In this document: positions 382-2,609 of the stretch, piece by piece
How positions within the stretch are numbered: position 1 is the first letter of the stretch
How the letters are laid out: every line of letters begins with the position of its first letter
Source: a virus
Lineage: Duplodnaviria > Heunggongvirae > Uroviricota > Caudoviricetes
Virus record (IMG/VR): IMGVR_UViG_2778261389_000001
Location: 1-4,849 of that record
DNA length: 4,849 bases
Reading direction: 5' to 3' (one strand)
Program-made: the position numbers and the translations under genes
The notes under the pieces: model-generated
The model's input: the letters and a program-made list of their open reading frames with translations, nothing else
The model's database searches: none
Told to the model about the DNA's origin: nothing

Positions 382-560
382 GACAGTCCGTTGCAACTTA
401 CCATTTTGACCGGAACGTCATTAAACCGAAGAAACTGAAGCCTCCTGGATAAAAGGGAATAATCGCGAGGCCAAACTTCCGCTTCCCGTCCGTATGTGAT
501 GTCATTAACCATTAAACATTACCTACAATTAAATCATTACGATAAACAAAATTTATATAT

Positions 561-583
561 AAAAAAACCCCACCGAAGCGGGG
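561..583 (-). terminator. Rho-independent terminator of the flagellin gene
   Basis: On the minus strand, 20 nt after the fliC stop: CCCCGC (583-578) / UUCG loop / GUGGGG (573-568), a 6-bp GC-rich stem with one G-U pair, followed by a run of 7 U (567-561). Confidence 0.75.
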
Positions 584-602
584 TTGTTCAAGGTGATGCG
601 AA

Positions 603-2228
603 TTAACGCAACAGAGACAGAACGCTCTGAGTCGTCTGGTTAGCCTGTGCCAGTACAGAAGTACCTGCCTGCTGCAGGATCTGCGCGCGGGACATGTTGG
701 AAACTTCGGTCGCGTAGTCAGCATCTTCGATACGGCTACGAGCAGAAGTCAGGTTGCCCACTGTGTTGCCTAGGTTAGTGATAGCAGAATCGAAACGGTT
801 CTGTACCGCACCCAGGGAGCTACGCAGTTTGTCAACTTTAGCCAGAGCTTCATCCAGTTTAGCCAGCGGGTTGGCAGTAGACAATGCTTTCAGGTCAGAC
901 GACTCAATAGCGTCTCCTTTAGAAGCACTCGCACCAGTAATGTTTGCCACGAATGTTTTATTACCATCGCGGAAAATAGCTTGCGCTTCACCATTTTTGT
1001 TTACTGCCCATTCAGCTGCTTTGCCGTCTGCATCCTTGATTACACTGGTGTTGCCAGTGCCTGTATCAACGTTTACTGCGAGATATTTGCCATCCGCAGT
1101 TTTAGCTACGAATTTACCATCTACGGCTTTGCCTTCTTTATCCTGAACCTGATGAATTTCTAAGTTCTTACCTTCGTGGTAAACAGAAAGCGGAGCATCA
1201 TTATAAGCGAGTTTGCTTCCTGCTTTATTTGTTGCCACATCAACTGAAACAGCGTTGTTATTGCCATCTACAGCAAATGCAGTTACGCGCCCACCAAATT
1301 TTGCAAGCTGAACAGGAGCAGTAATAGTACCTGTGCCAGCGACATCACTAACTTTTGTCTCAACTTTTTTATATCCCAATCCGTCTTGTTGCAGAAGGGT
1401 ATAATTTGCCGTTGCACTATTTTCTGCCTGCGCAACAAAATGGGTCTGACCATCAACTTCGATCTTATAAACTTTTGCAGCGGTAGCCCCACCAAGTTCA
1501 GTTGTGGTATCGCCTGTATCCACTGCGGCTGAACCAAAGTAAGTTGTAATACTACCGTTGGTTGTGTTTTTGAAATTGGCACCAAAAGCTGCACCTGCAG
1601 GCGCTCCGGTTACAGCACCGTCATTGCCATTTACATTGGTCAAACCAGGGGTTGCCTGGCTCTTTAATGCAACAGCAGAAGACATAGGTACTTTACCTGG
1701 AGCCACGCTGAAGCTACTCAGACCTAAGGTCGAAGCATCAATTTTATCGAGTTGAATTTCAATAGTTTCGCCATCGTTAGCACCAACCTGAATTTTCATG
1801 GTTTGGTCAGATGCCAGGACTTTTACGCCGTTAAATTGGGTCTGCTGAGAAACGCGATCAATTTCGCTCAGGCGTTGGGTGATTTCATCCTGAATGGAGT
1901 TCAGGTCAGAATCAGAGTTGGTGCCGTTGGTTGCCTGAACAGCCAGCTCACGTACACGCTGCAGGTTGTTGTTAATTTCAGACAGCGCGCCTTCGGTGGT
2001 CTGTACAACAGAAATACCGTCGTTGGCGTTACGGGAAGCCTGGGTCAGGCCTTTGATGTTGGAGGTGAAGCGGTTAGCAATCGCCTGACCAGCAGCATCG
2101 TCTTTCGCGCTGTTGATACGCAGACCGGAAGACAGACGCTCAATAGCGGAGCTCAGAGAAGACTGAGATTTGTTCAGGTTGTTCTGGGTCAACAGCGACA
2201 GGCTGTTTGTATTGATAACTTGTGCCAT
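603..2228 (-). CDS. fliC: Flagellin (FliC family, 541 aa); the track ORF 603-2294 over-extends by 22 codons upstream of the true start
   Basis: Translation begins [54 protein letters not shown] and ends ...[36 protein letters not shown], the conserved flagellin termini; AAGGA ribosome-binding site 9 nt upstream of the ATG at 2226-2228; the central ~270 aa are the divergent surface-exposed domain. Locus identity (canonical fliC versus an alternative flagellin locus) cannot be decided from this window. Confidence 0.95.
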
Positions 2229-2277
2229 AAAATATTCCTTTTGGGTTATTACGCCAGGCTTGCCTGTGTCATTCAAG

Positions 2278-2304
2278 TTATCGTCATCAATCAATTAAAC
2301 TTTA
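2278..2304 (-). promoter_or_regulatory. Sigma-28 (FliA) class 3 promoter of the flagellin gene
   Basis: Minus strand reads TAAAGTTT - 11 nt - GACGATAA, against the consensus TAAAGTTT-N11-GCCGATAA (8/8 and 7/8, exact spacing); predicted 5' UTR about 45-50 nt. Confidence 0.8.
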
Positions 2305-2509
2305 CTATTTTTTTTAATCTCAACAACCAACTGTTTCCAAAAGAACTTAAACAAAACCCACTCTTAAATCAGGTGGATTACTTCTTTTTTTTGCTCCTTT
2401 TGCGAGGGCATCGTTCTTAAAAAATGCAAAATACATACGACACAGAAACTGTCACTCTCCGTAATCACTCGAAATTAATTTCCTTGCTAAGAATTTTTCC
2501 ACTCAGCAC

Positions 2510-2536
2510 TAAATTAGTCATTGTTAATGCCGATAC
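2510..2536 (+). promoter_or_regulatory. Candidate orphan sigma-28-type promoter pointing away from fliC (possible remnant of a fliD-type promoter)
   Basis: Plus strand TAAATTAG - 11 nt - GCCGATAC; the -10 element matches 7/8, the -35 element 5/8, spacing exact. No CDS follows; a terminator lies about 45 nt downstream. Confidence 0.4.
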
Positions 2537-2581
2537 TCAATTCGCCCATAATAAATTTGAACACAAAATAAGCATGTTATT

Positions 2582-2609
2582 GCCCGCCCGTGCGGGCTTT
2601 TTTGTTTTT
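2582..2609 (+). terminator. Intrinsic terminator hairpin (GCCCGC-CCGT-GCGGGC) followed by TTTTTTGTTTTT; may also stop the convergent minus-strand operon
   Basis: Perfect 6-bp GC stem with 4-nt loop at 2582-2597 followed by a T-tract on the plus strand; it sits only 17 nt past the stop of the minus-strand UmuD'-like gene, where the minus-strand downstream sequence is only moderately U-rich. Confidence 0.7.

Follow-up and report, generated by a model that had tools for sequence, protein, structure and literature searches.

A sigma-28-type flagellin gene and an IS1-truncated FljA-family repressor gene at the probable cargo end of a yecE prophage

The repressor FljA acts on the 5' untranslated region (5'UTR) of the fliC mRNA. 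In the fljBA and flkAB systems of Salmonella and Escherichia coli, the alternative flagellin is made while FljA or FlkB represses fliC, and loss of the element leads to an irreversible switch to FliC (PMC3378880). A prophage-borne system is known from Enterobacter phage FRphi and its relatives (fliCP-tldR): its flagellin gene follows a tail-fibre shufflon and gin, and the host fliC promoter is blocked by TldR, an RNA-guided repressor derived from TnpB. The logic of joining a prophage flagellin to a repressor of host fliC has already been demonstrated for TldR, through RNA-seq, deletions and images of the filament switch, and the authors present the TldR-associated flagellins as the first known prophage-encoded ones (bioRxiv 10.1101/2023.11.30.569447; PMC13418256). 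Here, we analysed a stretch of 4,849 nucleotides (hereafter the window; positions 1 to 4,849 of IMG/VR virus record IMGVR_UViG_2778261389_000001) in which a flagellin gene lies between an insertion sequence, IS1, and phage genes. An exact match of its flagellin shows it to be, reverse-complemented, the entire contig NMFG01000096.1 of assembly GCA_002538315.1; GCA_003145195.1 is another assembly of its lineage. We consider it likely that the window is the cargo end of a temperate phage of the yecE site, carrying a recently imported cassette of a sigma-28 flagellin gene and an FljA-family repressor gene, the latter cut by IS1. The features of the cassette and of its IS1 border are the following:

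2337-2613, unstranded: spacer of the humD-type context, 99.5-100% conserved in all humD-type loci, those of Citrobacter included
2229-2336, minus strand: 5' end of the cassette, an fljB/flk-type 5'UTR with a sigma-28 promoter (-10 at 2278-2285, -35 at 2297-2304)
603-2228, minus strand: intact flagellin gene of the FliC/FljB family, 541 amino acids, with full Flagellin_N and Flagellin_C domains
558-585, minus strand: hairpin and T-run between the flagellin and repressor genes, an intrinsic terminator or attenuator (terminator scan)
382-512, minus strand: 5' end (43 codons) of a gene for an FljA-family 'phase-1 flagellin repressor', interrupted precisely where the IS1 terminus begins
359-381, minus strand: IS1 terminal inverted repeat (terminal GGTGATGCTGCCAACTTACTGAT, last base 381)
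51-326, minus strand: insA (InsA match to NF033558 and IS1 zinc-ribbon domain)
1-381, minus strand: left part of IS1, the contig end falling inside the element

The 131 bases beside IS1 encode MVNDITYGREAEVWPRDYSLLSRRLQFLRFNDVPVKMVSCNGL, which corresponds to residues 1-43 of a 176-amino-acid protein that is intact in L001, L002 and L003, three IS1-free E. coli contigs with an identical flagellin. This protein, named 'phase 1 flagellin transcriptional repressor' at NCBI, is a full-length member of PF03614 (Flag1_repress, 208.8 bits for P0011 in L001). In these contigs its gene lies 3' of the flagellin gene in the same orientation, and the cassette stands on acquired DNA, away from the fliC-fliD/fliA locus, as do fljBA/flkAB-type pairs. 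The original prediction had described positions 382-2609 as a complete flagellin cassette with its own sigma-28 promoter and terminator, overlooking the truncated gene at 382-512. The supposedly complete cassette thus amounts to the first of two genes in a unit: the promoter stands, with one mismatch to consensus, and the hairpin is real but is a conserved internal element between flagellin and repressor. By its family membership and by analogy with fljBA and flkAB (PMC3378880), the intact repressor would silence the resident fliC.

The promoter reads TAAAGTTT-N11-GACGATAA (2304..2278, minus strand), one mismatch away from TAAAGTTT-N11-GCCGATAA, and is the only sigma-28 match of such quality in the window. 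Together with the 5'UTR, it is nearly invariant in seven FljA-type cassettes (alignment A1), in which the -35, the CGATAA of the -10 and nearly all of the 5'UTR (CTTGAATGACACAGG.AAGCCT.GC.TAATA.ACCCAAAAGGAAAATTTTATG) are kept. This leader is unlike the fliC leaders of K-12 and Citrobacter farmeri, which fits a flagellin mRNA that would escape an FljA-type repressor aimed at fliC. A GC hairpin and T-run equivalent to that of the window (585..566, minus strand; -13.5 kcal/mol, z = -2.4 against shuffles) separates the two genes in each of eight cassettes, which were drawn from E. coli, Citrobacter, Atlantibacter and Salmonella-type loci. The common unit extends from about 60-108 bp 5' of the ATG to about 80 bp past the repressor stop, and homology with islets carrying a Hin-like recombinase stops at 2318-2336.

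The cassette family is found in several settings: in integrase islets with a Hin-like recombinase by garK/rnpB in C. freundii and in E. coli ECC-1470, whose islet has been named flkAB (PMC5422975); between yicC and dinD in E. coli BKQWHE; on a Citrobacter plasmid; and behind lambdoid tail genes in Atlantibacter hermannii. The flk islet (flkA-flkB; H3, H47 and others) and flmA54-fljA54 share with the window a non-fliC flagellin gene followed by an FljA-like fliC repressor gene on a horizontally acquired element, loss of which gives one-way phase variation in the islets. In substance, the proposal of a horizontally acquired alternative flagellin locus is supported, for the locus is a non-fliC flagellin with an FljA-like repressor, of the flk/flm type. 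Promoter, 5'UTR and intergenic hairpin are common to the window, ECC-1470 'flkAB', BKQWHE and the C. freundii islet. The flk-type elements, however, are small integrase islets (by rnpB/garK or yicC-dinD), some with a Hin-like recombinase, whereas the window type occupies the att end of a yecE prophage, lacks an adjacent recombinase and encodes a repressor only 62-65% identical to theirs.

Salmonella hin-fljB-fljA has the same gene pair in the same order, a conserved intergenic hairpin, the ribosome-binding-site-region sequence CCAAAAGGAAAATTTTATG and a repressor of the same family (FljA = PF03614). In contrast, the window has neither hin nor an invertible promoter, with no recombinase gene between flagellin and humD, and its repressor and flagellin are 60% and 54% identical to those of Salmonella; switching here would come about by acquiring or losing the prophage, not by inversion. 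In Salmonella Typhi z66, an fljB-like flagellin gene and fljA also travel on a mobile element whose loss leads to irreversible fliC expression, but the vehicle is the linear plasmid pBSSB1 and not a prophage (PMC1876496). The flnA region of strain P12b (H17), which had been listed among the candidate loci, likewise holds an alternative flagellin gene on an acquired, integrase-excised element near the flagellar regulon; it maps to the pgsA-yecA interval, some 20 kb away from fliC, and is a different site with a different flagellin. Its authors propose that FlnA itself inhibits translation or assembly of FliC, and the text consulted describes no FljA-like repressor gene for it.

Turning to the flagellin itself, its domains score 157 bits (PF00669) and 107 bits (PF00700); as a whole it lies above the cutoff of NF005294 (541.6 bits, cutoff 387) and under that of NF005953 (589 bits, cutoff 619). 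The N-terminal 170 residues are 84% identical to K-12 FliC and 85% to Salmonella-type FljB, and the C-terminal 90 residues 72% and 83%, respectively. The earlier view of these termini as intermediate between K-12 and Salmonella FliC was roughly right, but it missed their real affinity, which is with Citrobacter and Atlantibacter flagellins (96-99% for the N-terminal part, 93-98% for the C-terminal part). D0/D1 is conserved at 84-99% relative to known flagellins, and the protein may polymerise into a filament. The identical 541-residue protein occurs on 18 contigs labelled E. coli, and its 90% cluster also includes proteins of A. hermannii and C. werkmanii. Over their full length, its relatives are those of C. 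freundii and C. braakii (84-90% identity), C. farmeri (77%), A. hermannii (75%), Achromobacter (57-59%) and, outside its own cluster, E. coli-named proteins (at most 66%); the related gene of C. farmeri is an ordinary fliC with fliDST and fliA as neighbours. Among 5,426 complete E. coli genomes, the best match to the variable region was 67% identity over 42% of its length, and none of the 53 recognised E. coli H types matched, as judged from the E. coli-named flagellins and the complete genomes. By sequence, the variable region is of Citrobacter/Atlantibacter type, and this flagellin type is probably absent from standard E. coli H-typing schemes. Other alleles stand at the same phage position (501 residues in L011, about 530 in L054 and L027).

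Two side observations concern the same gene. The window flagellin, outer domains included (residues ~180-450), aligns in one stretch with the Achromobacter flagellin of PDB 7sqj; the outer domains of that filament reportedly pair to form a sheath, which is associated with improved motility in viscous media, and those of the phage flagellin may pair in the same way. Also, L013 ends at window position 2184 and L015 at 2146, so that both assemblies break within the conserved start of the flagellin gene, 44-82 bp in, as expected from a second flagellin gene (host fliC) in the same genome and the sole hint of one.

Upstream of the flagellin gene, the window carries phage genes, consistent with the prophage SOS module and tail-fibre genes originally noticed there:

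2614-3003, minus strand: humD, a UmuD'-like S24 peptidase gene of phage SOS type (NF051876, 221.5 bits, cutoff 120; phrog_811)
3006-3248, minus strand: phage open reading frame of 80 amino acids, in the same operon upstream of humD (phrog_3893, 1e-37)
3281-3310, unstranded: divergent control region with LexA box CTGTATATCCATCCAG at 3291-3306 (pattern scan)
3324-3566, plus strand: dinI-family gene (PF06183, 66.4 bits; NF007893)
3962-4405, minus strand: tail-fibre assembly protein gene (PF02413, 91 bits; phrog_188)
4408-4849, minus strand: C-terminal part of a tail-fibre gene, open at the contig end (PF21882 Gp53-like_C; tail-fibre PHROGs)

Longer contigs run past the tail fibre into a Mu-like baseplate and tail module. 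They give the order phage tail/baseplate, tail fibre, assembly protein, dinI, 80-residue reading frame, humD, flagellin, repressor, and then a 91-residue reading frame, a second dinI, a 34-residue fragment of yecE (yecE'), yecD, aspS, nudB, yebC, ruvC, ruvAB and znuBC. The site lies about 50 kb from the fliC region, and the phage genes are always upstream of the cassette. The flanks of the E. coli loci are those of E. coli (aspS 98-100%); L003 encodes an AspS identical to that of E. coli, and its aspS matches the Nissle 1917 gene at 98% identity. An IS1-free carrier of L003 type is E. coli GCA_049552975.1.

Junctions in three annotated genomes identify the 5' part of yecE as a site of prophage integration. 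The lambdoid prophage of Nissle 1917 carries its integrase at the end facing yecE, its tail-fibre/dinI/S24-peptidase end adjoins yecE'-yecD, and both att cores are present; in MB06232, the order is J, cor, tail fibres, invertase, dinI, yecE', yecD, and the same arm and dinI close a bona fide lambdoid prophage; KL53 has the same prophage/yecE'-yecD junction. The att core in yecE' is CACGCAGTTAA and its arm has three TGGGGCAT repeats; read from the core (TTAACTGCGTG) towards the phage, there follow the arm (three ATGCCCCA repeats), a LexA box and dinI. In E. coli (L001, L003) and Citrobacter (L011, L012) alike, core and arm are present in a single copy, found on the yecD side of the cassette and never between humD and flagellin. 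This places the cassette within the prophage, at its cargo end.

Exact AspS matches assign L003 to E. coli, L011 to the C. freundii complex and L012 to C. portucalensis, and both Citrobacter contigs have this prophage end, likewise at yecD-aspS. Between L003 and L012, identity is 100% over the 80-residue reading frame and humD (634 bp) and 99.7% over both the spacer and the flagellin gene (1,626 bp), compared with about 70% for the repressor, 75% for yecD, 87% for aspS and 81% for ruvB. These values show a very recent passage of phage end and flagellin between the genera, the E. coli cassette being a recent import from Citrobacter-like bacteria. The recombination joint between L003 and L012 lies at the intergenic hairpin, just past the flagellin gene, and beyond it the repressors differ in type (L003 3429-4049, 176 residues, Atlantibacter-like; L012 3113-3722, 179 residues, Citrobacter-like; about 62% amino-acid identity). 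The 176-residue E. coli protein falls in a cluster dominated by Atlantibacter and Franconibacter, while the 179-residue type is widespread in Citrobacter.

At the other border, the terminal inverted repeat and insA identify the element as IS1 (98-99% identical to IS1A/IS1B copies). It ends 221 bp past the flagellin stop codon, in agreement with the roughly 220 bp first estimated. The junction with the repressor gene is exact (...AACGGACTGTC followed by GGTGATGCTGCC..., the latter being the IS1 terminus); IS1-free L003 reads ...AACGGACTGTCAATCATTGG... at this position, and L001 and L003 run on colinearly where the window's IS1 begins. As a result of the insertion, 133 of the 176 repressor codons are separated from their promoter. 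Four other contigs of the same lineage have the IS1 end (L004, L006, L009 and the metagenome contig L010), and six end within 4 bp of the junction (L005, L007, L008, L014, L016, L017). L004 carries a second IS1 in inverted orientation (IS1 stretches 1-353 and 10906-11203), which abuts the phage at the point corresponding to L013 coordinate 2502, inside a 619-amino-acid tape-measure gene about 10.5 kb from the window's IS1; three other contigs (L005, L014, L015) begin exactly at this breakpoint. Inverted IS1 copies thus bracket a 10.5-kb segment from the baseplate genes to the truncated repressor, which either arose through IS1-mediated inversion or forms a composite-transposon-like unit. With one IS1 after codon 43 and another in the tape-measure gene, the repressor of the window lineage is probably dead and its prophage probably defective; the flagellin would be retained and host fliC no longer silenced. 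A 172-residue 'repressor' (P0022) considered as the far side of IS1 was rejected, being an intact gene that begins at a contig edge.

Such damage raises the strongest alternative, that the cassette is a decaying relic with a cryptic flagellin, unexpressed or unassembled, of the sort reported for certain E. coli H-type strains, and that the IS1 hits are part of its erosion. Besides the two insertions, it could call on a truncated tail fibre in one orientation of an invertible segment (see below) and on the frequent silence of one flagellin gene in E. coli strains that have two. We nevertheless regard it as improbable: the 541-codon reading frame is intact and 99.7-100% identical to the IS1-free E. 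coli and Citrobacter copies, the promoter is within one mismatch of consensus and followed by a conserved 5'UTR, and the IS1-bearing form recurs in many independent assemblies.

A second alternative, less probable again, is that the flagellin-repressor pair is a chromosomal islet beside a prophage hot spot, left behind when the phage excises. It would account for the different prophages found upstream of the same cassette (with a Mu-like tail in the window and L003, lambdoid with umuDC in L001 and L002) and for the members of the cassette family in non-phage islets and plasmids, and a survey of Salmonella that found fljB at predicted prophage ends left open whether it is cargo or merely adjacent. 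An islet outside the phage is difficult to reconcile with a sole att core and arm on the yecD side, which puts the cassette inside the element in both genera, with phage-type genes on both of its flanks, with a near-identical E. coli/Citrobacter block that joins humD to the flagellin, or with IMG/VR provirus calls that include the cassette.

Two further readings can be set aside with near certainty. A canonical fliC locus rearranged by IS1 and phage, as had been suggested by a flagellin gene with sigma-28 promoter and terminator beside mobile DNA, is contradicted by IS1-free relatives that continue to repressor, dinI, att arm, yecD and aspS and are flanked by yecD-aspS-ruvCAB instead of fliA/fliD, by a 5'UTR of fljB/flk type unlike those of K-12 or C. 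farmeri fliC, by a repressor gene where fliA would stand, and by the entirely different layout of a genuine canonical locus with a related flagellin (C. farmeri); the usual neighbours, reported missing at the outset, are indeed absent, as fliD, fliS, fliT and fliA were not found in the window. An assembly chimera of flagellin, IS1 and phage pieces, conceivable for a short contig ending in a repeat, conflicts with the same gene order at 99.9% identity in more than 20 independent assemblies (NCBI, ENA, JGI, Logan), including contigs of 146 kb and 164 kb.

Having weighed these alternatives, we return to the reading of the window as a phage cargo end and to its nearest prophage-borne counterpart. 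Like fliCP-tldR, the window type has a flagellin gene with a FliA-type promoter within prophage boundaries, past a tail-fibre/invertible region and followed by a gene for a (here presumed) fliC silencer, and IMG/VR contigs show both module types at the same position. The two differ in the repressor, which is TldR with a guide RNA in one and an FljA-family protein (PF03614) in the other, and in the absence of gin from the window type. Searches by tblastn with two TnpB-family neighbours of E. coli flagellin genes as queries found no TldR homologue in window-type loci and matched other IMG/VR contigs only. FljA is named in neither of the two TldR texts, no paper in the literature searched names both, and the combination of a prophage flagellin with an FljA-type repressor was not found described there. 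A separate observation concerns such a pair: in the complete genomes of E. coli EC09 (L029 9355-12190) and EC102 (L030 9605-12629), near glaH, a gene for a 622-residue flagellin is followed by a TnpB-family (TldR-like) gene, within an IS-rich island and with IS1 directly abutting. This pair is the RNA-guided counterpart of the window cassette.

A scan of IMG/VR with the window flagellin returned 78 viral contigs, which tblastn divides into three groups: Hin-flagellin-FljA (about 45 contigs, one with what we take to be the Salmonella hixR-fljB leader), Gin-flagellin-TnpB-family protein (about 20), and dinI-humD-flagellin-FljA or lambdoid tail-flagellin-FljA (about 11). The 43-kb provirus L054 terminates at the att arm adjoining yecD. 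In PHROGs, the full-length families are phrog_16088, 'unknown function', for the flagellin and phrog_1444, 'transcriptional repressor', for the repressor. In a megablast of complete E. coli genomes, plasmids and GenBank phages, no record spanned the window; partial matches were confined to IS1, the conserved ends of the flagellin and humD/dinI (86-89%).

Among the phage genes, the LexA box at 3291-3306 overlaps the sigma-70-like promoter of the 80-residue/humD operon (promoter scan), and a stretch homologous to the 80-residue reading frame is annotated as 'virulence protein' in Citrobacter phage Chris1. The second dinI, by the att arm in L003, carries a LexA box of its own (CTGTATAAAAAAACAG); with LexA boxes at both dinI genes, the cassette is embedded among SOS-controlled phage morons. 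Farther from the cassette lies an invertible tail-fibre segment:

3621-4787, unstranded: invertible tail-fibre segment, about 1.14 kb, bounded by two 26-bp invertase sites
3621-3646: invertase site B, TTTTCGTAAACG, central TT, CCTTAAGTGCCA
4762-4787: invertase site A, TGTTCCCAAACC, central AA, GGTTTGTGAGAG (16 of 18 positions of the Hin/Gin-family consensus)

L010 (1-1215) carries window positions 3628-4780 flipped, with an exact reciprocal exchange at the central dinucleotide, which is the signature of Gin/Hin-family serine invertases. In the window orientation the tail-fibre reading frame is complete; in the opposite one, read from the L010 junction, the fibre would end ...TNLP-stop right past the crossover. 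No invertase gene was found near the segment, either in the window, where no recombinase gene was found as first reported, or in the 10-20 kb loci L004, L011 and L013, so that the invertase must act in trans; in the related prophage of MB06232, at the same site, an invertase gene lies between the tail fibres and dinI. The segment governs the tail fibre and not the flagellin. The suspected kinship with Hin and Gin therefore holds for the tail fibre, for which the window does contain a Gin/Hin-type invertible segment, and fails at the flagellin promoter, where there is no invertase and no convincing hix: the only candidate, at 2317-2342, matches the invertase-site consensus at 12 of 18 positions, a chance level. 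This imperfect palindrome (ATCTCAACAACC AA CTGTTTCCAAAA) sits exactly at the homology boundary with the Hin-type flagellin islets and is partly conserved in them; it may be a relic recombination site.

The spacer at 2337-2613 is absent from the other cassette contexts. On its plus strand it has a terminator at 2582-2607 (GCCCGC-CCGT-GCGGGC and a T-run; terminator scan) and a weak sigma-28-like match at 2510-2536 (TAAA-N15-GCCGATAC), about 45 nt before that terminator, so that 2510-2607 could be a small FliA-dependent transcript. As a small RNA this candidate was rejected, its fold being no better than shuffles (z = -0.8) and Rfam giving no match; nothing in the whole window came near any Rfam gathering score.

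The fljBA locus of Salmonella and flkAB of E. coli provide the analogy for how the cassette might work. At a late stage of flagellar assembly, the phage flagellin gene would be transcribed by host FliA; transcription past the hairpin would yield a little FljA, and FljA would shut off host fliC. The filaments of the lysogen would then be built of phage flagellin, amounting to H-antigen conversion, and the cassette would be packaged with the phage; once the prophage is excised or lost, the cell would revert. In the IS1 lineage, the intact phage flagellin would be expressed together with the host flagellin rather than instead of it.

Several points weigh against this interpretation. The E. coli element is a mosaic of a Citrobacter-type phage end and flagellin, an Atlantibacter-type repressor and a second dinI, and in L001 and L002 the mosaic includes a different, lambdoid prophage with umuDC joined inside humD (window position 2942); the cassette could thus lie in a composite of phage remnants and not in one inducible phage. 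No isolated and sequenced phage in GenBank carries it, as tblastn with the flagellin gave fragmentary, unannotated records only. Conversion cannot operate as described in the IS1 lineage, where the repressor is broken and the tape-measure gene cut. Finally, expression and phenotype are predicted from sequence, and from a window of 4.8 kb that does not include the host fliC locus.

At a more general level, and with somewhat less than even confidence, we propose that a protein-based module for flagellar conversion is carried by temperate phages of Escherichia, Citrobacter and Atlantibacter in an att-proximal position like that of fliCP-tldR, such that two unrelated repressors, a protein acting on fliC expression and an RNA-guided one at the promoter, would do the same job, and that its flagellin alleles and repressor types reassort between genera. 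The classical fljBA/flkAB loci, and the kinship of Hin and Gin, could descend from such phage cargo beside tail-fibre invertases.

Flagellin is at once the H antigen, a ligand of TLR5 and the receptor of flagellotropic phages, and by bringing in a new flagellin along with a silencer of the resident one, a phage can alter serotype, immune recognition, motility and phage susceptibility in a single step. The locus described here indicates a second version of prophage-borne flagellin replacement, built on the classical FljA and moving among Citrobacter, Atlantibacter and E. coli almost unchanged in sequence. The IS1-cut repressor found in many assemblies represents a natural experiment in which the phage flagellin is kept and the silencer lost. 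If our interpretation is true, the 'extra' flagellin loci of E. coli, and possibly phase 2 of Salmonella, would be linked to phage cargo.

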